Shown piece by piece: positions 6,097-28,019 of a stretch of DNA of 28,019 bases (position 1 is the first letter of the stretch; each line of letters begins with the position of its first letter). Below the pieces are notes generated by a model. The model was given only the letters and a program-made list of their open reading frames with translations. It ran no database searches and was not told the origin of the DNA. The stretch is from an uncultured bacterium (GTDB lineage Bacteria; Omnitrophota; Omnitrophia; Omnitrophales; JACQLI01), in NCBI GenBank assembly GCA_964373135.1, contig CAYJTI010000002.1, positions 1 to 28,019 of the forward strand, given 5' to 3'. The position numbers and the translations under genes are program-made.

Positions 6097-6102
6097 AGAA
6101 TG

Positions 6103-7683: not shown

Positions 7684-7690
7684 TAGAACC

Positions 7691-7721: not shown

Positions 7722-7740
7722 TCCCTGTTCACCTCCATCA

Positions 7741-8556
7741 TTAAAAGAAGTAGAAGACGGCGGTAAAGAAACAGTCGAGGGTGATGATTAAAATGAGCGC
7801 CACCACCACCGCCGTAGTGGTGGAACGGCCCACCCCCTCCGCGCCCCCCTCGGTCCGGAATCCGAAATAACAGCCGACAATCGTAATCACCGTCCCAAAA
7901 ACAAACGCCTTAATGAGGCCGGTCATCACATCCTTAATCATCAAGATTTCGATGCTTCGCTCAATGTATTGGTGCGAGCTAATCCCTAACTTGAAAACCG
8001 CCACAAAATAGCCGCCGAGCATCCCGATGCAGTCGGCATAGATGGTGAGAAAAAAAAGCATGAAGAACCCGGCGACGAGCCGGGGAACGACCAAATACCG
8101 GACCGGGTCCGTGGCGAGAGACCGAAGCGCGTCAATCTGTTCAGTGACCTTCATCGTTCCAATCTCCGCGGCAATCGAAGCGCCGACCCGCCCCGCGACC
8201 ACCATCGCCGTCAAAACCGGCCCCAACTCGCGCGTCATGTAAAGCGCCTCCAGGTTCGACGTGAACTGCTCCTCCGCAAAGTGGCGCAACTGGTAAGCCG
8301 ATTGCAGGGCGAGAACCATCCCCGTGAAAAGTGCCGTGAGAAAAACAAGCGGGAGGGAGGTCACCCCAATCCGAGTCATCTGCTCGAGCGTGTATTCCCA
8401 ACGAAGCCTGGTGGTAAAAAGCGTCGCCACGGCATCGCGAAGCAGGAGGGTAATCCCGCCGGCGTGGTAGGCGAAATCCAAAGAGTGCCGGCCGAACTCT
8501 CCGAGCCACGACCGAACCGAAACAATCCGTCGCAAGGTTTCTAATCGCTGGTCCAT
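7741..8556 (-). CDS. mlaE: MlaE-type ABC permease
   Basis: RELGPVLTAMVVAGRVGASIAAEIGTMKVTEQIDALRSLATDPVRYLVVPR and GGAEGVGRSTT are MlaE-family signatures. Confidence 0.95.
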   Translation of the reverse strand: MDQRLETLRRIVSVRSWLGEFGRHSLDFAYHAGGITLLLRDAVATLFTTRLRWEYTLEQMTRIGVTSLPLVFLTALFTGMVLALQSAYQLRHFAEEQFTSNLEALYMTRELGPVLTAMVVAGRVGASIAAEIGTMKVTEQIDALRSLATDPVRYLVVPRLVAGFFMLFFLTIYADCIGMLGGYFVAVFKLGISSHQYIERSIEILMIKDVMTGLIKAFVFGTVITIVGCYFGFRTEGGAEGVGRSTTTAVVVALILIITLDCFFTAVFYFF

Positions 8557-8560
8557 GGCT

Positions 8561-12902: not shown

Positions 12903-12916
12903 GGAATTCTCTCTGG

Positions 12917-13981
12917 TTAAATGGGGACGTTGGTTAACATCTCTCGGATTTTTTCCGCCCGGCGGACATCCCGCTCGGCGGCCCCGAGGGCGCGGCCGTC
13001 CATCTTCTGAAGATGGGCCGGCTGAATCACGAGGAAAAGCCGGTTCAGCTCCCGGTGGGTCAACTTGGAAATAAATCCCAAATCCACGCCCAGGCGGACG
13101 AGCGACAGAAGCTGCACCGCCTCTTCTGAGGAGACGACGCGGGCCGACTTCAACACACCGAGGGCCCGCCAAATTTGGTCTTCGAACTTCGACTTCCGCT
13201 TTTCCAACAGGTGCGCCCGGGCCTCCTTCTCGTGAGACACCATCTGGTGAATCACCTTTTCGAGTCCCGTGATGATTTCCTCTTCATTCTGCCCGAGCGT
13301 TATCTGATTTGAAATTTGGAAAAAGTTCCCCGTCGCCTGCGTCCCCTCCCCGTAAAGGCCGCGCGTCGCCAGATTCATCTTCGCCAGCGCCTGAAGCACC
13401 TTGTTGAGCTGCTTCGTCAAGACGAGGCTCGGAAGGTGAAGCATGCAGGAGGCCCGGAGGCCGGTCCCCACATTCGTCGGGCAGGCCGTCAGGTAGCCCA
13501 AGGCGGCGTGAAAAGAGAAGGGAATGCTTTGCTCCAGTTCGCTAATCACCTCGTGAATAATCCGCCAGGCCTCCGTCAGATTCAGCCCGGACTGGAGGAT
13601 TTGGAGCCTGACATGGTCCTCTTCCAGCATCATGAGGCTCACGACCTCGTTTGGGCTGACGGCCACCGCCTTTTCTCCCTGGTCCATCGCATGCTCCCGG
13701 CTAATGAGGTGCCGCTCGAGAAGGAATTGTTTATCGAGCTCGGTCACGTCATGGTAACGGATGAAAAGAACATCTTTCAAAGCGGGGGTCCGGTGAAGGG
13801 ACTCTTCCAGGAGGTCGATGATTTCCTCCGCATGCTCTTTCGTGAGTTTGGACAAGAAAGGGAAGCCGGCAATGTTCCGCGCCAGCCGGATTCGGGAGCT
13901 CATGACGACATCCGCATCCGGCCCGGTTCCCCGGAGCCATTCGGTCGGATTCTGAAGGAGCCGGTCGATGAGTTCACTCAT
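12917..13981 (-). CDS. mcsB: Protein-arginine kinase McsB
   Basis: SSRIRLARN, LEEDHVRLQ, GYLTACPTNVGTGLRAS, GNFFQISNQITLG and C-terminal RDxxRA (ERDVRRA). Directly upstream of clpC. Confidence 0.96.
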   Translation of the reverse strand: MSELIDRLLQNPTEWLRGTGPDADVVMSSRIRLARNIAGFPFLSKLTKEHAEEIIDLLEESLHRTPALKDVLFIRYHDVTELDKQFLLERHLISREHAMDQGEKAVAVSPNEVVSLMMLEEDHVRLQILQSGLNLTEAWRIIHEVISELEQSIPFSFHAALGYLTACPTNVGTGLRASCMLHLPSLVLTKQLNKVLQALAKMNLATRGLYGEGTQATGNFFQISNQITLGQNEEEIITGLEKVIHQMVSHEKEARAHLLEKRKSKFEDQIWRALGVLKSARVVSSEEAVQLLSLVRLGVDLGFISKLTHRELNRLFLVIQPAHLQKMDGRALGAAERDVRRAEKIREMLTNVPI

Positions 13982-13984
13982 GCG

Positions 13985-14506
13985 TCAGCCTTTCTTCTTT
14001 CCCTTCTTCCATTTCTCTTCCAGCTGTTTAATCTGGTCGCGCACTTTCGCCGCCTCTTCAAAGGCCTCTTCGCGGACAAATTTCCGGAGCCGGTTGTGTA
14101 ATTCCTTCAGGTCGTGCACGGCGCGGCCCGCGGAGTTGGACGAAGGGAGCGAGGCGGGGCGGAGCCCGGTGTGCTGGGCCGCGTGCTGAACCCGTTTGAT
14201 TAAAGGGATTAAGAGTTTGGAAAACGACTCGTAGCACTCCCCGCATCCGAGCCGGCCGCTCCGGCTGAATTCATCGTAATAAAGGCCGCAGTTTGAACAC
14301 TTGAGCGAACTCCTTTCAATCCCCGTCACCTCTTTGGCAAGCTCCGTCAGGTCGTGCAGGAGGTCCGCTGGGTTGAAGTGGGTCTTGAACTGCGTCCCCT
14401 TCTCCTGGGCACAGGTCTCACAGAGATGGATTTCGACCATCTGTTCGTTCACAATCTCGGTGAGGTGAATTGTCGCCTCGCTCGTGCCGCAAATGTTACA
14501 CACCAT
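13985..14506 (-). CDS. mcsA: McsA (CxxC zinc motifs + UVR domain)
   Basis: CNIC, CETC, CSNC and GRLGCGECY motifs, followed by a UVR coil (EEAFEEAAKVRDQIK). Upstream of mcsB. Confidence 0.95.
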   Translation of the reverse strand: MVCNICGTSEATIHLTEIVNEQMVEIHLCETCAQEKGTQFKTHFNPADLLHDLTELAKEVTGIERSSLKCSNCGLYYDEFSRSGRLGCGECYESFSKLLIPLIKRVQHAAQHTGLRPASLPSSNSAGRAVHDLKELHNRLRKFVREEAFEEAAKVRDQIKQLEEKWKKGKKKG

Positions 14507-14534
14507 TGTTCTTACCCTGCCAATCGACTGCTCA

Positions 14535-14564
14535 ATTGTAACATGCCTGCAAATTTAGTACCAA
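14535..14564 (-). promoter_or_regulatory. Candidate sigma70/sigmaA promoter for mcsA-mcsB-clpC
   Basis: Minus strand TTGGTA (14564-14559), 18 bp spacer, TACAAT (14540-14535), with a TG at the extended -10 position; 28 nt before the mcsA ATG. Confidence 0.55.
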
Positions 14565-14593
14565 AGCTACCCGCCCAGGCCTGGCCCCGGGGT

Positions 14594-15472
14594 TCAGAGC
14601 GAATATCGGACGCCCTCCTTTTTAGTTAACTCGTGGAAGGCCTTCATGAAAGCTTGGGTTTGGGGCCCCGGCTTCCCGCTCCCAATGGTCCGGCCGTCGA
14701 TTTTGACCACCGGAATGACCTCGGCCGCCGTGCCGGTCAGGAAGACCTCGTCCGCATTGAAGAGGTCGTGCCGGGTCAAGATACGCTCTTCCGCGGCCGC
14801 CTTCTTCCCTCTCGCCATCTCCAAAATGGCCTGCCGGGTAATCCCTTTGAGGACCCCTACGTAGGTGGGCGGTGTCAGCAACGTGCCGTTTTTAACCATA
14901 AAGATATTGTCACCGGTGCATTCCGCCACATAGCCCTGGTGATTCAGGAGGAGGGCCTCCAAATATCCCGAATTATTCGCCTCGATTTTCGCCAGGATAT
15001 TGTTGAGATAATTAAGAGACTTGAGGGCCGGATTCACCGCCTCGGGAAAATTCCGGACCGTCGGCACCGTGATAATTTCAAGTCCGTGCTGGTAGAGCCG
15101 CTCGGGGTAGAGAACGATTTTGTCCGTGATGATAATCACGGTCGGCCGCTTGCACTTGTTGGGGTCGAGCCCCAAATCGCCCGGGCCCCGGGTCACGACC
15201 ACGCGAATGTAGGCATCGCTGAGTGCGTTCCGCCGAAGCGTCTCGACGACGGCCCCGGTCATCTCCTTCTGACTCAGAGGAATCTTGAGGAGAATCGTGT
15301 GCGCCGATTCCCAGAGGCGGTCGAGGTGTTCTTTCAGCTTAAAAACCAAGCAATGGTAGGAACGAATCCCCTCGAAAACGCCGTCTCCATAAAGGAGGCC
15401 GTGGTCAAAGACCGAAACCTTGGCCTCGCTTTTTGGGAACCATTTCCCGTCAATATAAACTTGAATTTCCAT
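14594..15472 (-). CDS. ilvE: Branched-chain amino acid aminotransferase
   Basis: VFDHGLLYGDGVFEGIR, PLP lysine in ALKSLNY, AECTGDNIF, LKGITR and EVFLTGTAAEVIPV (fold-type IV). Confidence 0.96.
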   Translation of the reverse strand: MEIQVYIDGKWFPKSEAKVSVFDHGLLYGDGVFEGIRSYHCLVFKLKEHLDRLWESAHTILLKIPLSQKEMTGAVVETLRRNALSDAYIRVVVTRGPGDLGLDPNKCKRPTVIIITDKIVLYPERLYQHGLEIITVPTVRNFPEAVNPALKSLNYLNNILAKIEANNSGYLEALLLNHQGYVAECTGDNIFMVKNGTLLTPPTYVGVLKGITRQAILEMARGKKAAAEERILTRHDLFNADEVFLTGTAAEVIPVVKIDGRTIGSGKPGPQTQAFMKAFHELTKKEGVRYSL

Positions 15473-15492
15473 TCAGAATTTCTCCTCTAAGT

Positions 15493-16185
15493 TTAGATAG
15501 ATTTGATGCCGTCTTGAACCAAGACCCCGTCGTGGAGACGATAGAGGTTTCCATACTTTGCGGCCCGGCCCTCATCATGCGTGACAATCACAAGCGCCAG
15601 GCGAGACTCCCGGTGAAGCGAACTCACAAGGTTGAAAACCACCTCGGCCGTCTCGTCGTCCAGATTCCCCGTCGGCTCGTCGCAAAAGAGAACCTCGGGC
15701 TCATTCATTAAAGCCCGCGCGATGGCCGCCCGCTGCTGCTCCCCGCCTGAGAGCTCACTCGGGAAATGTCCCTCCCGCCCCTCAAGACCGACCCGTCCGA
15801 TGAGTTCCTTCGCCCGCCGGGGATTTGGACTTCGGGCGAGGAGGCTCGGGAGAAGGACATTTTCAAAAAGCGTCAGCTCCGGAAGCAGATGGAAGAGCTG
15901 AAAAATAAATCCAATCCTTCGATTCCGGTAAAGGGAAAGTTCCCTCTCACCCATCTGGCTCAAATCGGCCCCCTTGAAAAAAATTCTTCCCTCCGTGGCC
16001 CGGTCGAGCCCGCCCAAAAGATGAAGGAGCGTTGACTTTCCCGAACCGGACCGTCCGACGATGAAGGCCATCTCCCCGGCCGACAGGGAAAAGTCCACCC
16101 CTTTCAGGATAGCAAGCGGCCCTTCCGGCGTCGGAAAATCTTTCCGCACCTTCTCTGCGACCAGCAGCGTGACCCGATTACTCAT
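15493..16185 (-). CDS. lolD: LolD-type ABC ATPase
   Basis: [42 protein letters not shown] and VTHD. Overlaps the 3' end of the permease gene. Confidence 0.9.
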
Positions 16186-17482
16186 AACGAAGGGCCTCCA
16201 CCGGATTGAGGCTGGCGGCCCGCTGGGCGGGATAAATCCCGGCCAGAATCGCCGTCAGGAGCGCCAGGGTCACAATGGTCGTCACATCCAAAAAGTTAAT
16301 CTCGGTCGGAATCCGGTCCAGGTAATAGATGTCGCTCGGGAAGACAGCGAGTCCGGTTGTCTCTTCCAGAAAATCCGCAATCGGATTCAAATTCCAGGCG
16401 GTGACAAGCCCCAAGATCGAGCCGAGAATCACCCCGAAGACCCCCACGCTGAATCCCTCCAACACAAAGATCTTTCGAACGCCGGCGCGCGTCGCCCCAA
16501 GCGCCCGCAGGATTCCAATATCCTTCGTCTTTTCCATGACGACCATAATCAAGGTGGACGAGATGTTGAAGGCCGCCACGAGCACAATCAGCGCGAGGAG
16601 AATGGTCATGACGTTTTTCTCCACCTGGAGCGCCGCAAAAAAGTTTCGATTCATGTCGACCCACGAACGGACCCAGTAATCGGCCCCCAGCTCAAACTGA
16701 AAAAATGACTTGAGCTCCTCGGCCTGGTCCACGTCCTTAAACCGCACACTGAGCCCGGTCACCCGGTTTCCCAAATGATAAAGGCGCTGTGCCTCCTCCA
16801 GGCTCACGAGCGCAAGCCCCGTGTCAAAATCGTTCATCCCGAGCCGAAAGATGCCCGCCACCCGGAAGGTCTTCGCCTCCGCCTCCTCCAGCGAAAAGGG
16901 CTTCCCCTCCTCCGCAAAGGGCGCAATGAGGGAGACCCGGTCATTCGGACCGACCCCCAAAATCTGGGCCAAGGGTTCTCCCAACACAATCGAGGGAACC
17001 ATCTGGCGTTCTGTTTTCTTAAAGAGGCCGAAGAAGCGCCGTTTGACTTGGACCTCCTCAATCGGCTCAAAATCAAGGACCCCCCAACGAAGACTCTCGC
17101 CAAAAATGGTGAGGTCCTCCCGGAAACGGTCAATCCCTTTGACAAGGACGCCCGTCGCATTCTCGGCCGAGCGAAGAATCGCCTGGCCCTGAACAAAGGC
17201 CGAAACATTTTCCATTTCGGCCTCCTTCCAAGAATGAATCTTTGCCATCACCGCCTCGGGGTCTTCCACGCCTCCTTCTCTTTCAATCCGGAGGTGGGGA
17301 TGAACGTTGACGATTTTCTCCTTGAGCTCCCGGTCAAACCCGCTCATGACGGCGAGGACCACAATGAGCGCCATGACCCCCACCGCCACGCCCAAAATCG
17401 AAATCAATGAAATGAGCGAAATAAACCCCGTCTTTCTCCGCCGGGTTAAATGTTTGAAGGCAATCCAGGATTCGTAATTCAT
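16178..17482 (-). CDS. lolC/E: LolC/LolE-family lipoprotein-releasing ABC permease
   Basis: GVAVGVMALIVVLAVMSGF TM1, a large periplasmic domain, VMEKTKDIGILRALGA, and C-terminal [18 protein letters not shown]. LolC and LolE cannot be distinguished by eye. Confidence 0.9.
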   Translation of the reverse strand: MNYESWIAFKHLTRRRKTGFISLISLISILGVAVGVMALIVVLAVMSGFDRELKEKIVNVHPHLRIEREGGVEDPEAVMAKIHSWKEAEMENVSAFVQGQAILRSAENATGVLVKGIDRFREDLTIFGESLRWGVLDFEPIEEVQVKRRFFGLFKKTERQMVPSIVLGEPLAQILGVGPNDRVSLIAPFAEEGKPFSLEEAEAKTFRVAGIFRLGMNDFDTGLALVSLEEAQRLYHLGNRVTGLSVRFKDVDQAEELKSFFQFELGADYWVRSWVDMNRNFFAALQVEKNVMTILLALIVLVAAFNISSTLIMVVMEKTKDIGILRALGATRAGVRKIFVLEGFSVGVFGVILGSILGLVTAWNLNPIADFLEETTGLAVFPSDIYYLDRIPTEINFLDVTTIVTLALLTAILAGIYPAQRAASLNPVEALRYE

Positions 17483-18906
17483 GCAGGCCTCAGCTGAGGA
17501 AAGAAAATGACCTCTCGGATGGACGGGCGGTTTGTGAGAATCATGACGAGCCGGTCGATTCCGATTCCCAGGCCGCCGGCCGGCGGCATGGCATATTCCA
17601 GGGCCGTGAGGAAATCTTCGTCCACCTGCTTATTGCCTCCGATAATCTCCGCCTGATTTTCAAGGCGTTCACGCTGAATCACCGGGTCATTCAATTCCGA
17701 AAAGGCGTTCGCGATTTCCATTTTTCCAATGTAAAGTTCGAACCGGTAGACGAGCTCTGGGTTTCCCTCCTTCGGTTTGGCCAAGGGCGTCAGGGCCGCC
17801 GGGTAGTCCACCACAAACGTCGGGTCCCAAAGCTCGGGCTCGACAACGTGGCCGAAGACGATATTCAGGACGTCCATCGCTTCGTCTGCCGGGTCAAATT
17901 CGATGCCGAGCCGTTTCGCCTCCTTTTTGATGTCGGCCTTCCGCCAGTCAACTTTTGTTTTCTCCCGAAGCGCCTCGTAAAAAGAGACTCGCCTCCAGGG
18001 CCTCTTGAAACGGACCGGCCGGTCCCCGTAGGTCAATTCGTCCCGGCCGTGAATCTTCTCCACCAAATTCGCCAGGAGCTCTTCCGTCAACGCCATCATA
18101 TCGGAATCATCGGCATAAGCCTGGTAGAGTTCGAGCATCGTGAATTCGGGGTTGTGCCGGACCGAAATCCCCTCGTTCCGGAAATTCCGGTTAATCTCAT
18201 AGATTTTCTCCAGGCCGCCCACGAGGAGCCGCTTGAGGTAAAGCTCCGGGGCGACCCTGAGGTAAAGGTCCAGATCGAGCGTTTCATGGTGCGTGGCAAA
18301 GGGACGGGCCCGGGCGCCGCCCGGAATCGGCTGCATCATCGGGGTTTCCACTTCGAGAAAACCCCGGCCGTCCAGAAACTGGCGAATCTCCCGGACAATC
18401 CGGCTTCGTTTGAGAAAGGCGTCCCGGACTTCTTCATTGACCAGTAAATCGACCGAGCGGTTTCGGTAACGGATTTCAACATCCTTGAGCCCGTGCCACT
18501 TTTCGGGGAGGACCCGGAGGATTTTCGAAAGGAGGGTGAAGGTCTCAATTCGAATCGTCCGCTCCCCCATCTTGGAGGTAAAAAGCGGCCCCTCCAATCC
18601 AATGATATCTCCCAGGTCTAAACTGAGAAACCTTTCATACTCCTTGGCCCCCAGAACCTCTTCTTTGGCGTAGAGCTGAATCTTACCGCTTCCATCTTTG
18701 AGGTCCGAGAAGGTGCTTTTCCCGTGGCTTCGCCGGGCCATGAGCCGCCCCGCCACCCGGACCTTTCGTCCTTCTTCGAACCGGCTCAAAATTCCTTCCA
18801 GCGGCTCCACCGGCAGAAATCGTCCGCCATACGGAGCCCTCCCCTCCTTGAGGTAGGCTTCGCGCTTCGCTTTCCTTTCTCGGAACAGCTCTGATTCCTC
18901 GCTCAT
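17479..18906 (-). CDS. lysS: Lysine--tRNA ligase (class II)
   Basis: OB anticodon domain (VAGRLMARRSHGK), LPEKWHGL, YLRVAPELYLKRL, FRNEG, EFTMLELY and GLGIGIDRL. The start is ATG 18906; the track's 41-aa extension translates the leader repeats. Confidence 0.98.
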   Translation of the reverse strand: MSEESELFRERKAKREAYLKEGRAPYGGRFLPVEPLEGILSRFEEGRKVRVAGRLMARRSHGKSTFSDLKDGSGKIQLYAKEEVLGAKEYERFLSLDLGDIIGLEGPLFTSKMGERTIRIETFTLLSKILRVLPEKWHGLKDVEIRYRNRSVDLLVNEEVRDAFLKRSRIVREIRQFLDGRGFLEVETPMMQPIPGGARARPFATHHETLDLDLYLRVAPELYLKRLLVGGLEKIYEINRNFRNEGISVRHNPEFTMLELYQAYADDSDMMALTEELLANLVEKIHGRDELTYGDRPVRFKRPWRRVSFYEALREKTKVDWRKADIKKEAKRLGIEFDPADEAMDVLNIVFGHVVEPELWDPTFVVDYPAALTPLAKPKEGNPELVYRFELYIGKMEIANAFSELNDPVIQRERLENQAEIIGGNKQVDEDFLTALEYAMPPAGGLGIGIDRLVMILTNRPSIREVIFFPQLRPA

Positions 18907-18940
18907 TCGTAAAATGCGTAAAATGGAATTTTTTCCGACT

Positions 18941-19127
18941 TGAGTTTGGCACTTTTTCAAATCATCCCTTCTCCCCCCAAGGGGGGAGAAGGTAAGGATG
19001 AGGGGGGTCGATTCTCGAAGTCCCCTCACCCTAACCCTCTCCCAGAGGGAGAGGGTAAATCAGAATTGGCTCCAATTTCTTTTCTCCCCTCCCTCTCAGA
19101 GGGAAGAGGGAAAAACTGCCAAACTCA
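18941..19127. repeat. 187-bp MITE/BIME-like element: three REP-like hairpins enclosed by 17-bp inverted repeats
   Basis: TGAGTTTGGCACTTTTT (18941-18957) vs AAAAACTGCCAAACTCA (19111-19127), 16/17 complementary. Inner hairpins at 18967-18992, 19034-19056 (within CCCCTCACCCTAACCCTCTCCC) and ~19082-19110. Confidence 0.85.
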
Positions 19128-19133: not shown

Positions 19134-21500
19134 CTAACTTAAACGGCTGATTATAGATGAGGCGGTTTGGGGTGTCAAAGTTTCTTTGGAAAGTTTGGAA
19201 AGTGCCCCAAACAGAGGGGCCTTCCCGAAGGGCTTGAGGAGAATCAGGATGAGGGGGAGCAAAACCAGGGTGCAGACGAGGGCGAAAAAGATGGTGAGGC
19301 TCGTCAAGAGGCCAAAATAAATCGTGGGACGAAAGCTTGCGAAGACGCTCGAGGCGAAGCCGAAGACCAAAATCAGAGTGGCCACGACGAGGGCCTGACC
19401 CACATTTCGGTAGGTGTGGTGCAGGGCCTGAAGGTAGTGGTGCCGATGGTCAAATTCGAAACGAAACCGGTAAAGAAAATGGACCGAGGCATCGACCACC
19501 AGGCCGAGGGCGACGCTCGAAATCATCGCCGTCGTCGTCGAAAGTTCTATCCCCGCCCAGCCCATGAGCCCGTAAAGGCCGAGAATCGGAAATAAGTTTG
19601 GGACGGCCGCAAGAAGTCCCATCATGAAGGAGCGGAAGAAGAAGGCGATGAGCGCCAAAATCAAGAAAAAGGTGAAGCCGAGGCTCTGGAGCTGATTGGT
19701 GACCAGCCGCTCGGCCATCTGACCCAGGAGGACGACGCTTCCCGTGAGACGGATTCGATACTCATCGCCAAAATTTTCTCTCACGTAACTCCAAATCTTT
19801 TCCTCCCTGACCCGCCCCTTTTCGGTGCCGATGGCCTTCATCCGGCCCTCGAGCGAGAGCCGGCGGAAATCCCGGGAAATAAAACTCCAAAAGTCCGGGT
19901 TGTTGGACTCTGCCATCTTCTCAAGGTAAGTTTGAAGGGTTTCCTCGTCTTCGGGAATGGCAAAGGCGGCCGCCTCTCCCTCTCTCGCTTCGTGAACCTT
20001 TTTGACCAGGAGCGGGAGGGAGTTCACCTTCGTGATTTCAGGCATTGCTTCCATAAATTGCGCAAAGGCATCGACCTTCTTCATCGTTTCGACGGTCACC
20101 ATCGGCCCCCGGTCTTTGCGCTCAATCGAAATCCCGAGCGAATAGACCCCGGCGAGGCGCTGGTCGATGAAACGGGTGGCGACGGCCAAGGCCGAGTCAG
20201 GACGGAGGTCACGAACCAGATTGGTGTCTATCCGGATTCTGGGGAGGCCGACGACCGCAAGAATCAAAAGAAGGGCGGCAATCGCCAGAAGAATCCACTT
20301 CAGGTGGAATTCAATCCGCTCGAGCGCGTAAACGATGATGCGGTTAAAGAAATGCTGCTCGCCCTCGGCCCGCCAATCCCCTTTCAACGGAAGGATGGGG
20401 AGAAGGAGAGGGGTCAGGACCATCGTAATGAGATACGAGTAAGAGGTCCCAATCGCAGCCGCCACGCCAAAGCTTTGGACCGCCGGGACCCGGTTGAGAC
20501 AGAGCGACAAAAATCCGGCCACGGTCGTAGCCGCCGCCAGGAAACAAGGAATCCCCAAGTGCTGAAGCGTGAGGCAAATGCACTCCCTCAAACTCGGGTG
20601 GTGCGGCCTCAGCTCACAAAAAAGATTAATGAGATGGACAACGCTCGTCACCGTCACAATCATCACCACAGGACCCAAAAGAGAATTGACCAGATTGAGC
20701 GGCCTTCCCATGAGGGAGACGGTCCCAAAGGTCCAAACGAGGGTGACAAAAACAACCGACATCGCCACAACGACGCTCGCCCCGTTCCGGTAAATCAGGA
20801 AGGTCGCCAGAATCAGAAAAAGCGCGACGGCGGGGATGAAGAAGGCCTGGTCTCTTTGAATCGAGTCGGTCAGGTCGTACTGCTCCACCGGCGAACCGGC
20901 CACATAAAAACGGACCCCCCGCCAGGAGAAGGACTTCAAGGTCCGGCGAAGCTCGCCAATGTAACCTTGAAGAAAGTTCGGGTCCTTCGGTTTGGCCCGG
21001 AGGCGTAAAAGGATGGCCCCCACCTTCCCGTCCCGGGAAACAAGGTTTCCTTGAATCAAGGGGTGGCGCAGGGCCTCTTCGCGAAATTCCTGAATCGATT
21101 TCTCCCCCTCGAAGACCCCCGAAATCAGGGGTTCGATCTTCACGCCGAAAATCTTGTGCCGGATGTCTAAGGCATTCGTCACGCTCACCACCCGGTCCAC
21201 CCGCCGGTCAGAGGCGAGGAGGCGTGTCAAGACATGTGTCAGGCGGAGGTTTGTGAGCGTGAGATAATCGGAGGTCTCAATCGCCACGGCCACCAAATGG
21301 TCGCTCCCGAAATTTTCCTTGAACTCCTGATAAAAGCGGTACTCGGGGGTGGTCTTCGTGAAAAGGGTTTCCGTGGAGGGGTCGATTCTGAGCGAGGTCG
21401 CCTCATAGCCAAAGAAAAGGGTGGCGAGGATGAAGGCCAAGAGAAGGGGCCAACGTAGGACGAATACCAAAACGGCGAATTTTCTGAACCCCTGACTCAC
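19134..21500 (-). CDS. MMPL/RND-family transporter
   Basis: 788 aa with the duplicated RND topology (1 TM, periplasmic domain, 5 TM, twice) and ALGLVVDASVHF in the second half. GTG start. Confidence 0.88.
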   Translation of the reverse strand: MSQGFRKFAVLVFVLRWPLLLAFILATLFFGYEATSLRIDPSTETLFTKTTPEYRFYQEFKENFGSDHLVAVAIETSDYLTLTNLRLTHVLTRLLASDRRVDRVVSVTNALDIRHKIFGVKIEPLISGVFEGEKSIQEFREEALRHPLIQGNLVSRDGKVGAILLRLRAKPKDPNFLQGYIGELRRTLKSFSWRGVRFYVAGSPVEQYDLTDSIQRDQAFFIPAVALFLILATFLIYRNGASVVVAMSVVFVTLVWTFGTVSLMGRPLNLVNSLLGPVVMIVTVTSVVHLINLFCELRPHHPSLRECICLTLQHLGIPCFLAAATTVAGFLSLCLNRVPAVQSFGVAAAIGTSYSYLITMVLTPLLLPILPLKGDWRAEGEQHFFNRIIVYALERIEFHLKWILLAIAALLLILAVVGLPRIRIDTNLVRDLRPDSALAVATRFIDQRLAGVYSLGISIERKDRGPMVTVETMKKVDAFAQFMEAMPEITKVNSLPLLVKKVHEAREGEAAAFAIPEDEETLQTYLEKMAESNNPDFWSFISRDFRRLSLEGRMKAIGTEKGRVREEKIWSYVRENFGDEYRIRLTGSVVLLGQMAERLVTNQLQSLGFTFFLILALIAFFFRSFMMGLLAAVPNLFPILGLYGLMGWAGIELSTTTAMISSVALGLVVDASVHFLYRFRFEFDHRHHYLQALHHTYRNVGQALVVATLILVFGFASSVFASFRPTIYFGLLTSLTIFFALVCTLVLLPLILILLKPFGKAPLFGALSKLSKETLTPQTASSIISRLS
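19150..19178 (-). promoter_or_regulatory. Perfect-consensus sigma70 promoter for the lysS operon, embedded in the MMPL gene's last codons
   Basis: Minus strand TTGACA (19178-19173), 17 bp spacer, TATAAT (19155-19150). Confidence 0.8.
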
Positions 21501-21524
21501 TTTGTGTTACTTTATTCTCCTTAA

Positions 21525-22637
21525 ATGTTAAGCGTCTGCCTAGCGTTATTTTATTCGGCTGTGGCCCTCGTCTGGCTCACCCGAGCGGGACGGGCCCTCC
21601 GCTTCCTCCGGAAATGTCCTGAAGTCCTTCCCTCGCAGGCTTCGCAAGACCCGCTTCCCCGAGTCTCGGTCCTCCTCCCGGTTAAAAATGAGGAGGTCAA
21701 TATCGAGGCGTGGCTCGCCCGTCTTTTGGCCCAGGATTCTCCCGCCGATGAAATTATCGTCACCAACGACCATTCCACTGACCGGACTCCGGAAATCCTG
21801 GCTCACTTCGAACGCCTGAATCCCGGCCGGCTTAAGCTCCTCGAGGCGCCGGCGGTCCCGGAGGGGTGGACGGGAAAAAATTGGGCCTTGGCCCAAGGCG
21901 AGCGGGAGGCCCAGGGGGAGTGGTTTCTTTTTACCGACGCCGACACCCGCTTTGAGCCCTTCACGATTTCGAGTGCCGTCCGTCATGCGGAAGCAAGGCG
22001 GCTTGATTTCCTCACCCTCTCGCCCCGCTGCCTCGTGGAAGGCTTTTGGGAAAAGTTACTCGAGCCCTTTGCGATGGCTTTTTTCGGACTCTGGTTTCCC
22101 CTGGAAAAGGCGAATGAACCCGATTCGACCGCCGTCTTTGGAAACGGACAGTACCTGATGATACTGAAGTGGCTTTGCCAGAAAATCGGCGGCCACGAGA
22201 AGGTGAAGGGAAGTTATTTGGAAGACTTCGCGCTCGCGAGGGAAGCCAAAAAGGCCGGCGCCCGGGTCGAGTGTGCGAGGGGGACGAAAATTTTCGGGAC
22301 CCGGATGTATCGCTCCTTTTCAGGAATCTGGCTGGGGTGGCGGCGAATCTTTCTTCATGCGTTTGACAAGAATGCCGTTCGTCTCGGGGCGAAGGCGGGG
22401 CTCCTCTTCCTATTTTCCTTTCTTCCCTTCGCCCTGTTTCCCTGGCTGGCTCCCTCGCCGCTTGCGGCGATTCCCGTCTTCGCCCTGATTTTTATCACAA
22501 GCGCCCGGGCCTATGCCCTCGTCGGAGCGCCCCAAGCTTATGCGCTCCTCCACCCCCTCGCCGGGCTCCTCCTGGGCGGAATCCTCCTCGATGCCGCCTC
22601 ACTCGCCCTCCGAAAAAAAGAAGTGACGTGGCGTTAG
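21525..22637 (+). CDS. Membrane-bound GT2 glycosyltransferase (HpnB/CruC/CrtQ-like lipid glycosyltransferase group)
   Basis: VSVLLPVKNEE, NDHSTDRT, GWTGKNWA, LFTDAD (DxD), GNGQY, LEDFAL, RMY, plus N- and C-terminal TM segments. Confidence 0.88.
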   Translation: MLSVCLALFYSAVALVWLTRAGRALRFLRKCPEVLPSQASQDPLPRVSVLLPVKNEEVNIEAWLARLLAQDSPADEIIVTNDHSTDRTPEILAHFERLNPGRLKLLEAPAVPEGWTGKNWALAQGEREAQGEWFLFTDADTRFEPFTISSAVRHAEARRLDFLTLSPRCLVEGFWEKLLEPFAMAFFGLWFPLEKANEPDSTAVFGNGQYLMILKWLCQKIGGHEKVKGSYLEDFALAREAKKAGARVECARGTKIFGTRMYRSFSGIWLGWRRIFLHAFDKNAVRLGAKAGLLFLFSFLPFALFPWLAPSPLAAIPVFALIFITSARAYALVGAPQAYALLHPLAGLLLGGILLDAASLALRKKEVTWR

Positions 22638-22712
22638 GTACCGGTTCTGCCGAACCGGTTCTGCAGGGGACAGTTTACAAATTTGTAAAGTGTCCCCTGC
22701 AGAACCGGTACC
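22638..22712. repeat. ACCGGT-family palindrome (56 bp, one mismatched pair) with a duplicated left arm, between convergent genes
   Basis: ACCGGTTCTGCAGGGGACA-G-TTTACAAATTTGTAAA-G-TGTCCCCTGCAGAACCGGT at 22654-22709, with an extra arm GGTACCGGTTCTGC at 22638-22651. Confidence 0.93.
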
Positions 22713-22715
22713 GAA

Positions 22716-23810
22716 TTAGAGGAGGATGTAGCCCGCCTCGATGGCGTAACGGACGATTTTTTTCAGGAATGCAAGGTCGGTATTCGGGAAGCGGATGGAA
22801 GTGTCTCGGAGAAACGTGCGGGTATTCGTGACATCGAAGGTGAGGGAATTTCCCAGGTAGCCCAGATAAGGCTGAATTTTAGAAAAAATTTCCCGCTCCA
22901 CGGCATCCAGCTTCTCCAGGGAAAATTTCTCGGGGTCAATCACCTCCACCGGCGAAGAGATTCCAAATTCCTCTTTCACCTGGAGGAGCATTTCCAAGGT
23001 GGGCGGATTTTCCGTGACGAGATGAAAGGTCCGGCCCTGGCTGTCCGAACGCCCGGAGAGCGCGAACGCCGCCTCGACGACAAAATCCATCGGCACCAAA
23101 TTGAAGGAATTTTCAAGCCGGGAAGGGACCTTTTTCAAAAGGCCGTGCGCAAAAAGGCGCCAAAAGGGATAAATGACGTTGAACTCACTCACCGCGCCCC
23201 GCTCCGAATCCCCCACGACAATGCTCGGCCGGAAAATCATCGCCGGAAGCCCCTCGGCCAACGCTTCGCGGACCCTTTTCTCGGCCAGATACTTCGTTGC
23301 CTCGTAATGATTGGCAAAGGCGGGCTCCGAGGGAAGCTCATCCTCGAGCGAGTGAAGGGGCGTAAAACTGCCCGCCACATAGGCCGTGCTGAAATAAATG
23401 AAACGCTCAAACGGCCCCCGCTCTTTCATCTCCCAGGCCGCTTCGAGCGCGTGACTCGTCCCTTGAAAATTAATCCGCTCGGCCGCCTCCCACTCGGCCC
23501 CCAGGTTGGTCAAGGCCGCGATGTGATAAAAGTCATGCGTGTGGGCGGTCACGAAATTCCAATCCGTCGTGCTGAGCCCGAGCCTCGGCTCGGTCACATC
23601 CCCCGCCAAAACCCGGATTCGGTCTTTCCCTTTTCCATTGACCCCGAGCTGGCTCAAGAGCCTTTCGGCCCGGGCCTCGTGGGAGTCCCCATTTTTCGAC
23701 CGGACGAGGAGGACGAGTCCGTGGCCGGTCCTTTCCAAAAAAACTCGGACCAACTCCCGTCCGATTCCCCCCGTGGCGCCGGTGAGAAAAACCGTCTTAC
23801 GCCCCATCAT
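22716..23810 (-). CDS. Extended SDR, fatty-acyl/thioester reductase-like (NAD_binding_4 type)
   Basis: FLTGATGGIG, LVLLVR, GDVTEPRLGL, YFSTAYVAG, YEATKY (YxxxK) and IFRPSIVVG. GGAG lies 5 nt before ATG 23810. Confidence 0.88.
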   Translation of the reverse strand: MMGRKTVFLTGATGGIGRELVRVFLERTGHGLVLLVRSKNGDSHEARAERLLSQLGVNGKGKDRIRVLAGDVTEPRLGLSTTDWNFVTAHTHDFYHIAALTNLGAEWEAAERINFQGTSHALEAAWEMKERGPFERFIYFSTAYVAGSFTPLHSLEDELPSEPAFANHYEATKYLAEKRVREALAEGLPAMIFRPSIVVGDSERGAVSEFNVIYPFWRLFAHGLLKKVPSRLENSFNLVPMDFVVEAAFALSGRSDSQGRTFHLVTENPPTLEMLLQVKEEFGISSPVEVIDPEKFSLEKLDAVEREIFSKIQPYLGYLGNSLTFDVTNTRTFLRDTSIRFPNTDLAFLKKIVRYAIEAGYILL

Positions 23811-25140
23811 ACCGCTCCACCACGAGACAAATATTCTGCCCGCCGAATCCAAACGAGTTGCTGAGAGCCCGGTCCACTTTCACCTCCCGGGCTTGATTCG
23901 GAACATAATCCAAGTCACACACGGGGTCCGGCTCTTCATAGTTAATGGTCGGTGGAATCACCCCGTCGCGCATGGCGAGGAGGCAGGCAATGAGTTCCGT
24001 GGCGCCTGCCCCCGCAATCATGTGGCCGACCATCGACTTAATGGAACTCACCGGGATGTCGTAGGCCTTTTCTCCAAACACCCGTTTGATGGCCAAGGTC
24101 TCGATGGAATCGTTCACGAGGGTGGCCGTGCCGTGGGCATTAATGTAGTCGATGTCGTTGGGTGAGAGGCCCGACTTCCGAAGCGCCTGCTCCATCGCCC
24201 GCTTCGCGCCGTCTCCCTCGGGGTCCATATCCGTGAGACGGAAGGCGTCGGCCGTAGAGCCATAACCGGCCACCTCCCCGTAAATCTTGGCTCCCCGCTT
24301 CCGGGCATGATTTAATTCTTCCAAGACCAAGACCGCCGCCCCTTCAGAGAGGACGAAGCCGTCACGGCGTTTATCGAAGGGGCGAGATGCGCGTTCCGGC
24401 GCTTCGTTTCGCCGGGAGAGGACCGTGAGCTGACTGAAGCCCGCAATCCCAAAGGGGTAAATCATGGAATGCGCTCCTCCCGTGAGAAGGATGTCGGCCT
24501 CCCCCCTCCGAATCCATTCACACGCCTCGCCAATCGCCTGACTCGATGCGGCGCAGGCTGTGAGACAACTTGAGACCGGCCCTTTAATCTTAAATTGTCC
24601 GGCCAAATGTCTCACGGTCATAAACGGCTGGATTTCAAGCTCCTGGTGCCCCGTGAGGAAATCCGAGCTTCTTGTGACGTAGCGGGCCGGGTCAACCAGT
24701 TTGCCGTTGTCTCCCCAGGCCGAACAGATGGTGGAAATGAAACCGTCGAGATTGAATCCCCAGTCCCCGGCGGCGAAATAAATCCCGACCCGCTCACTGG
24801 CTACCGGTTCCGAAGGTGCCACGTTCGCGAACGTGGCACCTTCGGAACCGGTACCGAGGCCGGCGTCCCGAAACGCCTCGTCCGCCGCCTGCAGGGCAAA
24901 AAAGGTTGAGCGGCCGGCCGATTTAATTTCAGGATTCCGCCCGCGCCAAAAATTGAAATCAAATCCCCGCACCTCGCCCGCAATCCGGACCGGAAACTCC
25001 TCCGCATTAAAGAGGGTAATGGGTCCGATGCCGGATTTGCCGGCAATCCAATTTTCCCAGTTTTCAGAAACCGTGAGGCCGAGCGGTGTCACCGCTCCCA
25101 AGCCGGTGACCACGACACGCCTGAGACCGTTACTCCCCAT
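23797..25140 (-). CDS. fabF: Beta-ketoacyl-ACP synthase (FabF-like, intact Cys-His-His)
   Basis: RRVVVTGLGAVTPLG, catalytic Cys in TACAASSQA, DGFVLSEGA, YINAHGTAT, KSMVGH and SNSFGFGGQN. Confidence 0.93.
   Translation of the reverse strand: MGSNGLRRVVVTGLGAVTPLGLTVSENWENWIAGKSGIGPITLFNAEEFPVRIAGEVRGFDFNFWRGRNPEIKSAGRSTFFALQAADEAFRDAGLGTGSEGATFANVAPSEPVASERVGIYFAAGDWGFNLDGFISTICSAWGDNGKLVDPARYVTRSSDFLTGHQELEIQPFMTVRHLAGQFKIKGPVSSCLTACAASSQAIGEACEWIRRGEADILLTGGAHSMIYPFGIAGFSQLTVLSRRNEAPERASRPFDKRRDGFVLSEGAAVLVLEELNHARKRGAKIYGEVAGYGSTADAFRLTDMDPEGDGAKRAMEQALRKSGLSPNDIDYINAHGTATLVNDSIETLAIKRVFGEKAYDIPVSSIKSMVGHMIAGAGATELIACLLAMRDGVIPPTINYEEPDPVCDLDYVPNQAREVKVDRALSNSFGFGGQNICLVVERYDGA
24802..24853. 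repeat. Perfect 52-bp palindrome with ACCGGT termini, in frame inside the ketosynthase
   Basis: TACCGGTTCCGAAGGTGCCACGTTCG|CGAACGTGGCACCTTCGGAACCGGTA; each half is the exact reverse complement of the other. Confidence 0.95.
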
Positions 25141-26383
25141 GACGCCCCACCACCATCGCCGCGCTTTGGTCGCCGAAGCCGAAGGTATTCAAAAGAAAGT
25201 TCCGGGCCTCGACATTTTTGGGCCGGTCAAGAACGAAATTAAGTTCACACTCCGGGTCCGGATGTTCCAGATTGACCACGGGAGGAAGAAGCTTACTTTG
25301 AAACGCAAAGAGGGCGAGGCCCAATTCGGTCACTCCCGCCGCATCGACCAAGTGACCCGTGACCGATTTGGTGGCAATCACCGGAACCCGATGCGAACCG
25401 TTCCGGAAAATTTCAAGGAGCGAGCGCGCCTCGGAAACATCCTCCTCGGGGACCCCGCTCCCGTGGGCGTGAATAAAATCGATGTCCCGCTCGTCCCGGT
25501 CTGCTTCCTCGAGCGCCTTTTTAATCGACAGGCCCTGGGTATTAAAGGTCGCGCTGTAGCCCAAAATCTCGCCATAAACCCGGGCCCCTCGTCTTAACGC
25601 GTGCTCCCTTTCTTCGAGGACAAAAAGGCCGGCCCCTTCCCCCACCACCATCCCGTCCCGGTGACGGTCAAAGGGGCAGTAAACTTTTTCCGGGGCCTGG
25701 TCTTTTTTCGAGAGAATTCCCAACAAATGAAGACGGGCCAACCCCAGGGGATTGAGTTTGGAATCGGTCGCGCCCGCCAGCATTAAATCGGCGTCGTCCC
25801 GTTGAATCACTCGGCAGGCCTCCCCGACCGCCTGGACTCCCCCGGTGGAAGAGGTCAAGAGCGTGTTGCTTGGCCCCTTGAGGCGGTGAAGCACGGAAAT
25901 GTGACAGGCCGGCATATTCGGCAGATATTTGAGGAGCCAAAGGGGATAAAGCGCCCGAATCCCCTCTTGACCGAACTGGCTGATTTGGAACCGGCCTTCC
26001 GAATCGAGCGACTCCCGAATCCCGGCGCCCAACTCTTCAAGGTCATTATTAATTAAACCCGCGCCCAGCGTGACCCCCGCCCGCCATGAATCAAACGAGC
26101 CCGGGCCAATCTGAGCGTCTGCCATCGCCAAGGTGCTCGCCGCAACGGCCAGCCGGATGTCCCGGCTCATCACCTTGAGGCTTTTCCGTTCCCTGACAAA
26201 ATCTTCGGGACGGAAATTTGGCACTTCTCCCCCCACTCGGATGGGGGAACCATTGGCAGAAAAATCCGACAGGAATCGAATGGCGGAGCGGCCCTTCAAG
26301 GCCGACTCCCAGAGCGGCTCCCGGCCGAGCCCGCAGGCGCTCACCATTCCAATGCCCGTAATGACGACCCGCCGGCCGAGCAT
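25130..26383 (-). CDS. Ketosynthase-fold protein with Cys->Ser at the catalytic position (chain-length-factor- or decarboxylase-like)
   Basis: RRVVITGIG, LKYLPNMPACH, GPSNTLLTSSTGG (aligns to GPVSSCLTACAAS of the neighbour), IHAHGSG, KSVTGH and NTFGFGDQ. Confidence 0.88.
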   Translation of the reverse strand: MLGRRVVITGIGMVSACGLGREPLWESALKGRSAIRFLSDFSANGSPIRVGGEVPNFRPEDFVRERKSLKVMSRDIRLAVAASTLAMADAQIGPGSFDSWRAGVTLGAGLINNDLEELGAGIRESLDSEGRFQISQFGQEGIRALYPLWLLKYLPNMPACHISVLHRLKGPSNTLLTSSTGGVQAVGEACRVIQRDDADLMLAGATDSKLNPLGLARLHLLGILSKKDQAPEKVYCPFDRHRDGMVVGEGAGLFVLEEREHALRRGARVYGEILGYSATFNTQGLSIKKALEEADRDERDIDFIHAHGSGVPEEDVSEARSLLEIFRNGSHRVPVIATKSVTGHLVDAAGVTELGLALFAFQSKLLPPVVNLEHPDPECELNFVLDRPKNVEARNFLLNTFGFGDQSAAMVVGRHGE

Positions 26384-26386
26384 AGG

Positions 26387-26791
26387 TTACCTCAACGCTC
26401 CGATTAAGGTCTCCGGGAAAGTAATCGGTCCGATTCCGTCGGGCCGGAGACGGCCGACATTCATTAAAAGGACTCTCCCCTTGGCAAGTTTCCGTCCCTC
26501 CTGAAAAACCTCTCCCCGAAACCAGCCGGCTTCTTTCCTCAATCCCTCTGCCTCGACTTCGATTTGGACCTCCTTCTCAGGGGTCGGGCGCTCAAAAAAT
26601 TCAACCCCTTCAATCTTTGTGAAAACCAAGTCATCCTTGAAATCGCTTTCGGCTCCCAAAAGAAGCGCTCCGGCCTGGGCGATTAACTCCACCAAATAAC
26701 TCTGAGGGTAGGAAGGCTCCCAATTTTTCCTCGCCCTCACCCCCCTCGCCTTCTCAAAACTTTCCACCCCGTCTAACCAAATCCAGCTCAT
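26387..26791 (-). CDS. FabZ/FabA-like hotdog-fold protein lacking the GHFP catalytic-His loop
   Basis: WLDGVESFE..ARKN, YPQSYLVELIAQAGALL and FTKIEGVEF follow the FabZ order, but the segment between KN and the P..L.E..AQ helix is short and has no His. Confidence 0.7.
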   Translation of the reverse strand: MSWIWLDGVESFEKARGVRARKNWEPSYPQSYLVELIAQAGALLLGAESDFKDDLVFTKIEGVEFFERPTPEKEVQIEVEAEGLRKEAGWFRGEVFQEGRKLAKGRVLLMNVGRLRPDGIGPITFPETLIGALR

Positions 26792-27153
26792 CGAATGAGT
26801 TTGGCTCCAATTCCATCCGGCGTCGGGAAGAAATTTCCCTCCGCGTGCCGGTCATTGCGATAACTCCCTTTGGCGCGAAACCGGCTGTTTCCCTCCATTG
26901 AAATCTCGATGTCACGGAGCCGGCCTTCATCGAATCCGAGATTCTCCGAGGCTTTCAAATAAGCCTCCTTCGCCACAAAGCAGCGCGCAAAAAACTCGAC
27001 CGGACGAGGGGCGGTTTCATAGCCCGCCTGCTCTTTGGAGCTCAGGAGACGAGCGACGGACTTCAGGGGATGTTCACGGAGCAGTCTTTTAATTCGATTC
27101 CAGGAAATGAGGTCGACTCCCACTCCGACCGGTTTTTGGCTAAAGGGAATCAC
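26788..27153 (-). CDS. acpS: AcpS-type phosphopantetheinyl transferase
   Basis: GVGVDL..RI and FARCFVAKEAYLKA motifs, 121 aa. The C-terminus is divergent. GTG start overlaps the ACP stop. Confidence 0.8.
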   Translation of the reverse strand: MIPFSQKPVGVGVDLISWNRIKRLLREHPLKSVARLLSSKEQAGYETAPRPVEFFARCFVAKEAYLKASENLGFDEGRLRDIEISMEGNSRFRAKGSYRNDRHAEGNFFPTPDGIGAKLIR

Positions 27154-27551
27154 AAGGCTTGAACTTTTTTGGTGGAAACCCGCTCCCGGACGTAATCGAT
27201 AATCATCTGAACATTGAAAAGCCCGGCCAACTGTGAAACCTGAGGCTCTTTTTCAAATTCGCTGACATTGAGAAGGGGGACCTTCTCCCGCAAAACTTTA
27301 AGTCCGGCCGGGGTGACTCGTCCGGCCTCCACGAGACCCTCTTGGTTCAAGAGATTCCCCGGAAAGAGCTCCCCCGCTGGGATCTTAATGTCGAAGGCCT
27401 TCTCGAGGCGGAAGATGATGTCAATGAAGTCAATCGATTCGGCGCCGAGGTCGTTCACGAGCGAGGATTCGAGCCGGATTTCCTTGGTGTCGAGCGCCAA
27501 GGCCCCCGCCAGACACTCCTGAACTTTTTTCAAAATCAGGCGGTCATCCAT
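27150..27551 (-). CDS. Large acyl carrier protein (133 aa) with an internal insertion
   Basis: Ppant serine in DLGAESIDFIDIIFRLEKAFDIKIP; ~50 extra residues precede the last helix (NVQMIIDYV). Confidence 0.9.
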   Translation of the reverse strand: MDDRLILKKVQECLAGALALDTKEIRLESSLVNDLGAESIDFIDIIFRLEKAFDIKIPAGELFPGNLLNQEGLVEAGRVTPAGLKVLREKVPLLNVSEFEKEPQVSQLAGLFNVQMIIDYVRERVSTKKVQAL

Positions 27552-28019
27552 GGTTCGGTTTCAGAACGAAAATTCCATTGAAGATGGGAATCCCCAAGAT
27601 TTGAGTCCAGAGGTCCTTTTCAAAAATCGTTTCGAGGCCGAGCCGGCGAAAGGTCTGGCGCCACTCGCTCCGCTTCCGGAATTGCCGGGGATGGCCGACA
27701 TACTCAAACGTAAACATCGCGTCTCTCAAGATCGTAAAAATTCTCTCCAGGGAACTTTCATAGAGGTCTTCCACGACAATCACGGCCTGTCGAGTCACCC
27801 GCTTGGCCTCGGCCAAAAGTTTCTCAGGCTGGGAGACGTGGTGCAGGACCGTGACGAGCAAGCTCACATCAAAGCCCTGGTCCGGAAAGGGGATGTGGTC
27901 TCCCTCATAAGTCGTGACCGGCGCCTTTTTAAAGGAGGGTTCAACCACGTCGAGCACCGTCACCTCACAGCGACAAATCCGCCGCAGGGGTTCCACATAG
28001 AAGCCCCACCCCCCGCCGA
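27544..28019 (-). CDS. Class I SAM-dependent methyltransferase (5' end beyond the window)
   Basis: The frame is open to the window edge and gives motif I xGGGWGF upstream of the track's GTG, then TVLDV, IPFPDQGFDV, VLHH and LLAEAKRV. It overlaps the ACP start. Confidence 0.85.
   Translation of the reverse strand, partial: GGGWGFYVEPLRRICRCEVTVLDVVEPSFKKAPVTTYEGDHIPFPDQGFDVSLLVTVLHHVSQPEKLLAEAKRVTRQAVIVVEDLYESSLERIFTILRDAMFTFEYVGHPRQFRKRSEWRQTFRRLGLETIFEKDLWTQILGIPIFNGIFVLKPNHG

Follow-up and report, generated by a model that had tools for sequence, protein, structure and literature searches.

Gene content of the locus

We analyzed a 28,019-nucleotide stretch of DNA (hereafter, the window) from an uncultured bacterium of the Omnitrophota. 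The window is the entire contig CAYJTI010000002.1 (C2) of a 1.42-Mb metagenome-assembled genome (MAG) that is 77% complete. Our subject is the cluster at its 3′ end, which holds genes for a dedicated acyl carrier protein (ACP), a ketosynthase (KS) with a degenerate partner (KS′), and enzymes predicted to release, glycosylate, and export a lipid chain. An earlier note, made from the letters of the window alone, had listed nine open reading frames (ORFs) here, all of which were present at the coordinates and with the domains that it gave:

19134-21500, minus strand: MMPL/HAE3 lipid transporter of the resistance-nodulation-division type (MMPL, E = 7e-35; HAE3, E = 6.4e-65; HpnN-like, E = 4e-25)
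21525-22637, plus strand: membrane family 2 glycosyltransferase (GT2), HpnB/CruG-like (Glycos_transf_2, E = 4.3e-21; CruG, E = 4.2e-44; HpnB, E = 7.2e-43)
22716-23852, minus strand: stand-alone terminal thioester reductase (TR), a short-chain dehydrogenase/reductase (SDR) of the NAD_binding_4 type (NAD_binding_4, E = 1e-50; TIGR01746, E = 1.8e-45)
23797-25140, minus strand: active KS, Cys-His-His (alignment to solved FabF, domain models)
25130-26383, minus strand: KS′ partner, Ser-His-His, chain-length-factor-like (alignment to solved FabF, domain models)
26387-26791, minus strand: hotdog protein of the FabZ fold (DH2) without catalytic His (FabZ-fold model)
26788-27153, minus strand: AcpS-type phosphopantetheinyl transferase (ACPS, E = 4.5e-12)
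27150-27551, minus strand: dedicated ACP, 133 aa (PP-binding, E = 5.5e-11)
27544-28017, minus strand: class I S-adenosylmethionine (SAM) methyltransferase (MT), C-terminal 157 aa (Methyltransf_11, E = 1.2e-11)

The minus-strand genes of the cluster overlap by 4-11 nt or are spaced by 3 nt, the pattern expected of a single operon, which bears out the tight overlap described earlier. The GT2 gene is adjacent to this operon, as had been reported, but is encoded on the plus strand.

The operon had been expected to continue beyond the window, and its missing part was found on a 2.5-kb contig of the same MAG (C196), separated from the window end by ~0.5 kb of unassembled sequence. This contig holds the first 405 residues of a B12-binding radical-SAM enzyme (rSAM), a small ORF, and an SDR; the rSAM is 83% identical to the enzyme of relatives and has the CxxxCxxC motif. 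The MT gene is cut at its 5′ end by the contig end, so that the first ~50 codons are missing; the remaining 157 aa are 64% identical to residues 52-208 of a 208-aa orthologue (locus L025) and weakly match the DVU_1556-family MT and BioC. In relatives whose KS′ is 66-73% identical, the complete order can be seen: an SDR on the opposite strand, then an ~80-aa ORF, rSAM with DUF4070, MT, ACP, AcpS, hotdog, KS′, KS, and TR, followed by GT2 (again on the opposite strand), MMPL, lysS, and lolCD.

A ketosynthase pair with a dedicated carrier protein

Aligned to solved FabF, the active KS has a complete Cys-His-His triad, while the KS′ has TSSTGG in the place of TACATG and retains both His residues. 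The Ser-His-His form is limited to the window's own family; elsewhere in the KS′ clade the Cys position is taken by E, D, S, A, V, T, or N, and His is often lost. Given this clade-wide decay of the triad, and the adjacency of the two genes in all loci, the KS(Ser) and KS(Cys) genes singled out earlier are a pair of the KS/dead-KS type. Predicted pairing of the two proteins reached an ipSAE interface score of 0.94 against 0.00 for the best control, a mark attained by 51/78 solved complexes and 2/108 mismatched pairs; because all KS enzymes dimerize, this score shows likeness only and cannot separate a heterodimer from homodimers. We built KS trees from 140 sequences (FastTree) and from 57 sequences (IQ-TREE, LG+C20+F+G4), in which the rows "OMN canon" are non-cluster FabF paralogues and not proven housekeeping FabF. 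KS and KS′ formed sister clades with support of 100 each, lying jointly on one side of a branch with a Shimodaira-Hasegawa-like approximate likelihood-ratio (SH-aLRT) support of 98.

The ACP carries the attachment site DLGAESIDF and an insertion of ~45 aa after helix II. It is conserved to an unusual degree, the insertion included, with 36 columns invariant among 12 diverse relatives. Its AlphaFold model (predicted local distance difference test score [pLDDT] 89) consists of the ACP bundle with extra elements, and the nearest solved folds are ordinary ACPs. In Omnitrophota loci the gene for the AcpS, which has the motifs GVDL and KEAYLKA, separates the ACP gene from the hotdog gene; none was detected at that position in Planctomycete loci.

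The hotdog protein had been called FabZ-like. This holds for its fold, since the best matches to its model (pLDDT 94) are FabZ of E. coli and C. jejuni (template modeling score 0.72-0.75), but not for dehydratase function: its sequence contains no histidine at all and, judged by that sequence, it cannot be a stand-alone dehydratase. A deletion of 11-13 aa, specific to the main Omnitrophota type of cluster, removes the DHFP segment, and the Glu (E35) is invariant. Relatives are few: a set of 1.8 billion proteins gave no more than 55 representative clusters at E ≤ 0.001, and for the distant ones the available genomic context consists of contigs of 0.6-2.9 kb. In sister families a second hotdog protein (DH1) keeps both His and Glu and matches the Pfam ApeI-like family. 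The window's family is without DH1 and has the rSAM gene and the small ORF in its place upstream of MT; no ApeI-like gene was found elsewhere in the window's genome.

The upstream flank, where the earlier note had advised looking for a radical-SAM gene, FabG, or a second FabZ, yielded the first of these; DH1 is lost and the SDR appears to be of another kind. All Omnitrophota cluster SDRs carry NYGAIGVSK, with the Y-x6-K spacing of FabI/FabL, in contrast to the Y-x3-K ketoreductase spacing of Planctomycete cluster SDRs. Against the FabL model NF005975 the cluster SDR scores 301 bits, just below the cut-off of 328, and we predict it to be a FabL-type enoyl reductase, not a ketoreductase. FabL-like SDRs were present in 4/4, 12/12, and 1/1 relatives of the families f1, f5, and f10, and in 0/19 relatives of the cluster-free families f2, f3, f4, f7, and f9.

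Predicted release, glycosylation, and export genes

The TR matches PF07993 over its full length (172.8 bits) and TIGR01746 below cut-off (155.7 against 213 bits). Its motifs TGATGGIG and YEATK are intact and its nearest solved relative is the reductase domain of MxaA, a terminal PKS (polyketide synthase) reductase whose product is an alcohol. By these features it is a terminal reductase of the PKS/nonribosomal peptide synthetase type. The GT2 shows the motifs DAD and ED, and hydrophobic segments are present at both of its ends. Its named neighbors, CruG and HpnB, and those of the pump, HpnN and HAE3, belong to lipid-acting or lipid-associated families.

Linkage was counted in the 11 Omnitrophota loci with MT and TR. 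TR was present in all 11 and GT2 in 10, its adjacency being kept across 37-52% identity, while MMPL, which adjoins GT2 in the window's family, was linked in 5 and absent in 6. The proposed linkage of reductase, glycosyltransferase, and transporter is therefore conserved for the first two and partial for the third.

Independence from primary fatty acid synthesis

We next consider whether the cluster is the organism's primary fatty acid synthase (FAS), given that its ACP is the sole PP-binding match in the 77%-complete genome and that fabD was not found there. The same genome holds a separate canonical fabF, inside which contig C77 starts (214 bits over 141 aa, with lpxA near), and a canonical fabZ on contig C3 (173 bits). 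Besides the long-ACP cluster, the family relatives G001 and G003 carry a canonical fabF immediately preceded by a canonical acpP, so the window genome's own acpP most likely lies just off the end of C77. KS′ orthologues (42-73% identity) with an adjacent KS were found in 21/40 relatives of the order, in the families f1, f5, f6, f8, and f10; the other 19 were without the cluster, which was found in none of f2, f3, f4, f7, and f9. Reductive release, moreover, does not feed phospholipid synthesis. We therefore regard a primary FAS as highly improbable; the cluster does not hold the genome's only fabF, and its description as a self-contained accessory type II FAS-like cluster stands.

A third FabF-like gene of this genome lies on contig C113 (L009:1-3494), where bioB, a FabG-like SDR, a divergent FabF-like KS (435 aa, with a very long branch), and bioF stand together. 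This grouping suggests a dedicated KS/ketoreductase pair for pimelate synthesis in biotin formation.

One cassette in three phyla

The earlier note had pointed to a likeness to the ACP-FabZ-KS-KS clusters of Planctomycetes, which proved correct. In a scan of species representatives, the genomes that encode the same long ACP (DLGAESIDF...GELFP) numbered at least 586 and came from Omnitrophota, Planctomycetota (Phycisphaerae, Planctomycetia, Pirellulales, and one MAG labeled Brocadiia), and Auribacterota. For the comparison of gene order we kept 80 loci and used ORFs anchored by tblastn, since greedy ORF calls gave antisense artefacts in GC-rich loci. A constant core emerged, in the order DH1, sometimes an SDR, long ACP, DH2, KS′, and KS. 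The main Omnitrophota type adds MT, AcpS, TR, GT2, MMPL, and a divergent SDR. A second Omnitrophota architecture adds GT2, an SDR, a hexapeptide acyltransferase, a haloacid dehalogenase-type (HAD) protein, a class III aminotransferase, and an AMP-binding enzyme.

The cassette of Planctomycetota and Auribacterota shares an orthologous ACP (46-53% identity), KS′ and KS of the same fully supported clades, and the same order. Planctomycete versions differ in that their DH2 keeps the His and their SDR is a Y-x3-K ketoreductase, neither of which is true of the main Omnitrophota type, and in that they lack AcpS, MT, TR, GT2, and MMPL. In the two phyla the core is followed by an alpha/beta-hydrolase in 20/80 loci and by a GH3 ligase in 6 loci, and both lie directly downstream of KS in L062, L066, L076, L086, L093, and L097. 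The ornithine lipid of Singulisphaera is made by these two enzyme types, OlsI and OlsH (PMC12493201). Since the likeness to OlsI/OlsH is one of enzyme type, the cassette may supply the acyl chain of planctomycete ornithine or other amino lipids, and its output there probably goes to amino lipids. The presence of these genes after the same core fits a chain-supply cassette with a variable head group.

In two planctomycete lineages (L128 [G045:C3] and L063) a B12 radical-SAM gene was seen inside the cassette, in the order DH1, rSAM, ketoreductase, ACP, DH2, KS′, and KS. The encoded enzymes are 31-33% identical to that of the window's family, indicating that recruitment of rSAM to the cassette is repeated or old.

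Genomic setting and assembly

Positions 1-19029 of the window hold housekeeping genes, namely cysS, gltX, ispDF, a PIN-TRAM gene, mlaDFE with a TamB-like gene, clpC-mcsB-mcsA, ilvE, lolCD-type ATP-binding cassette (ABC) genes, and lysS. The cluster site, between secA-lnt and lysS-lolCD, is also used in distant Omnitrophota families, which suggests that the cluster was inherited vertically, with losses. Public sequencing data from two studies (four DNA runs) yielded contig pieces that cover every cluster gene at 95-100% identity. Promoter and terminator scans of the locus gave no more than chance, and an exact look-up of the window's KS′ sequence returned no record.

The public contig pieces break solely at palindromic repeats. 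One of these is a perfect 52-bp palindrome (24802-24853) in frame within the active KS gene, where it encodes ~13 extra residues in a surface loop that five orthologues lack; the enzyme thus has this 13-aa insertion besides a clade-specific one of ~20 aa. Since the contigs also break at 19023-19055 and 22637-22713, the element belongs to a dispersed repeat family.

Comparison with the anammox ladderane cluster

The likeness proposed in the earlier note extended to the candidate ladderane loci of anammox bacteria. Anammox Cluster I (KustE3603-3608) encodes amxACP, amxFabZ, the pair amxFabFmut/amxFabF2, a phytoene-desaturase homologue, and a B12 radical-SAM enzyme (bioRxiv 10.64898/2026.05.19.726425; PMC10139942). 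Clusters labeled "ladderane" by antiSMASH have been reported in Omnitrophota and other non-anammox phyla, with no function assigned (PMC9902471, PMC5383146). We picked anammox genomes by paired hydrazine synthase (HZS) ORFs of ~810-830 aa together with about seven FabF paralogues, one genome being confirmed by its Cluster I layout. Pfam HZS_alpha was rejected as a marker, being unspecific (it matches 49/401 planctomycete genomes), and the class of the MAG labeled Brocadiia (12 genomes) held no clear anammox genome. The published layout was found in G179 (L122), with an 86-aa ACP, FabZ (152 bits), two KSs, a CrtI-family protein, and a B12 rSAM.

The two systems are alike in having a dedicated ACP, a FabZ-fold protein, a dead and an active KS, and, in the window's family, a B12 radical-SAM enzyme; the KSs of both derive from FabF, and both systems occur in the Planctomycetes-Verrucomicrobia-Chlamydiae (PVC) superphylum. 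It is this shared layout, together with the antiSMASH label given to such Omnitrophota MAG clusters (PMC9902471), that would speak for a ladderane-type or other radical-SAM-cyclized lipid pathway homologous to Cluster I. The phylogeny argues otherwise. All anammox cluster KSs fell outside both the KS and KS′ clades, across the branch, with other FabF paralogues. In approximately unbiased (AU) tests, a forced clade of active KSs was rejected (p-AU 0.019), while a forced dead-KS clade of KS′ and anammox FabFmut was not (p-AU 0.15). Both window KSs also scored higher against ordinary FabF than against the chains of PDB 9s5h, which we presume, without confirmation since the preprint gives no code, to be the amxFabF heterodimer. 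Five anammox genomes were searched for a KS of the long-ACP type, and none turned up.

The remaining parts diverge as well. The ACP has 133 aa with the conserved insertion, whereas amxACP has 86 aa and no insertion; the hotdog protein has no His, whereas amxFabZ retains it, and a sequence search with the hotdog did not find amxFabZ. Cluster I has the desaturase homologue; a CrtI-family gene is present in L122, but neither the window's cluster nor those of its relatives contain one. Conversely, AcpS, MT, the FabL-type enoyl reductase, TR, GT2, and MMPL are absent from Cluster I. The cluster rSAM is 28-29% identical to the anammox enzymes and occurs in the window's own genome (C196), in the relatives L025-L027, and otherwise in few lineages. 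It scores 74 bits against TIGR04072 (cut-off 360); since even the enzyme of Cluster I reaches no more than 87, we set this model aside as a test for ladderane pathways.

Together, these comparisons leave layout as the sole link to Cluster I and make a homologous ladderane pathway quite improbable. Most likely, as far as the trees and alignments indicate, the KS duplication was independent of the anammox one, and the likeness is one of design, reached in parallel from FabF, rather than orthology. They also suggest that the antiSMASH label "ladderane" is misleading for such non-anammox clusters.

Separately, a further FabF paralogue in several Omnitrophota genomes (L129, L131, L132, and L133; G002:C1, G026:C23, G010:C1, and G034:C1) grouped with the anammox cluster KSs (SH-aLRT 88) and not with anammox housekeeping FabF; it was not found in the window's own genome.

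A proposed glycolipid pathway and its alternatives

We give about an even chance to a reading, drawn from gene content and motifs, in which the cluster is an accessory chain synthase whose product is released reductively, glycosylated, and exported as an envelope glycolipid. The cluster AcpS would activate the oversized ACP, on which the active KS and the dead-type KS′ would jointly elongate the chain; the KS′ would set chain length and may prime synthesis by decarboxylating malonyl-ACP. The FabL-type enoyl reductase encoded on C196 would saturate the chain. Since the cluster of the window's family has no ketoreductase, has lost DH1, and keeps only the His-less DH2, ketoreduction and dehydration would be borrowed from the primary FabG and FabZ, or the hotdog protein may pair with another FabZ-fold protein. 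The MT and the B12 radical-SAM enzyme would modify the chain, methylation being most likely, and the TR is predicted to free it as an aldehyde or alcohol. The membrane GT2 would then glycosylate the hydroxyl, and the MMPL/HAE3 pump would move the lipid outward. We infer that the product is most likely a fatty alcohol that carries a sugar cap and is destined for the cell envelope.

Several points weigh against this pathway. GT2 is read in the direction opposite to the operon, and fewer than half of the counted loci have a linked MMPL. With neither a ketoreductase nor an active dehydratase in the window's family, the cycle is incomplete on paper, and the 77%-complete genome yielded no fabD. The roles of MT, rSAM, and the His-less hotdog are guesses, and the predicted KS/KS′ heterodimer may reflect just the general dimerization of KS enzymes. 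Finally, no RNA run was found to contain the locus.

The main rival takes up the first of these points and supposes that the fatty aldehyde or alcohol has another fate (ether lipids, wax esters, or amination), with GT2 and MMPL serving a separate envelope role. Besides the strand of GT2 and the loci without MMPL, the second Omnitrophota architecture speaks for it: there the core is joined to aminotransferase, AMP-binding, HAD, and acyltransferase genes without TR, and these different partners indicate that the core's output is routed several ways. Yet GT2 is adjacent in nearly all of the counted loci and recurs at a different position in that second architecture, and no ether-lipid or wax-synthase gene lies within the cluster. 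We consider this rival unlikely, while giving it real weight. An aryl-polyene (APE)-like type II PKS making a pigment lipid could be proposed from the ApeI-like match of the sister-family DH1, and from the GT2, MMPL-type, and methyltransferase genes that APE clusters contain as well. The cluster, however, has no ketoreductase, aryl-starter ligase, LolA-like protein, or acyltransferase, and no aryl-CoA ligase was found in it or in the clusters of relatives. FabF models give its KSs far higher scores than do PRK07103, PRK09185, and PRK06147, which we take to be the APE-associated KS models, and the Y-x6-K enoyl-reductase signature of the SDR likewise argues against a polyene, so that this origin has next to no chance. 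A variant of the proposed pathway, to which we allow an outside chance, is a second lipid strategy of the "dead KS + dedicated ACP + B12-rSAM" kind, invented independently of that in anammox bacteria and making a radical-tailored (multi-methylated or cyclized) chain exported as an alkyl glycoside. Here the B12 rSAM would have replaced DH1, while the His-less FabZ fold, the MT, and the Ser-His-His KS′ were kept.

Relation to known systems and biological meaning

The design class itself, in which a KS/dead-KS pair is combined with a dedicated ACP, has precedents in type II PKS, anammox Cluster I, and rhizobial acpXL. The rhizobial cluster for very-long-chain fatty acids, acpXL-fabZXL-fabF2XL-fabF1XL-adhA2XL-lpxXL, shares with the Omnitrophota cluster the plan of a single operon for an envelope lipid chain, in which a special ACP and a dehydratase (here the FabZ-fold protein) are joined by two paralogues of FabF and a gene of the reductase type. 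Its presumed family models, in contrast, score far below cut-off here (PRK06501, 363/629; PRK06519, 78/320; PRK06508, 40/83), and the Omnitrophota cluster has no LpxXL acyltransferase, its predicted release being reductive. The cyanobacterial heterocyst glycolipid pathway, with a PKS and terminal reductase, a glycosyltransferase, and a dedicated exporter, follows the same logic as proposed here: reductive release to a fatty alcohol, glycosylation, and export to an outer layer. It does so with a type I PKS, an unrelated glycosyltransferase, and an ABC/TolC exporter, and there is no homology of the core. Three features are new in the family of the window: a B12 rSAM that stands where DH1 would be, a KS′ of the Ser-His-His form, and the linkage of MMPL.

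Omnitrophota are uncultured, very small, and widespread PVC bacteria. We found no study of their lipids, and no paper that describes this operon, or the cassette shared across PVC phyla, in its own right. The operon leads to a testable prediction for these organisms, namely alkyl glycosides as a lipid class, and points to the genes that would be behind it. More broadly, a single ACP/KS′/KS cassette occurs in three PVC phyla and at least 586 species genomes with varied release and head-group enzymes, which offers a framework for locating the acyl source of planctomycete amino lipids.

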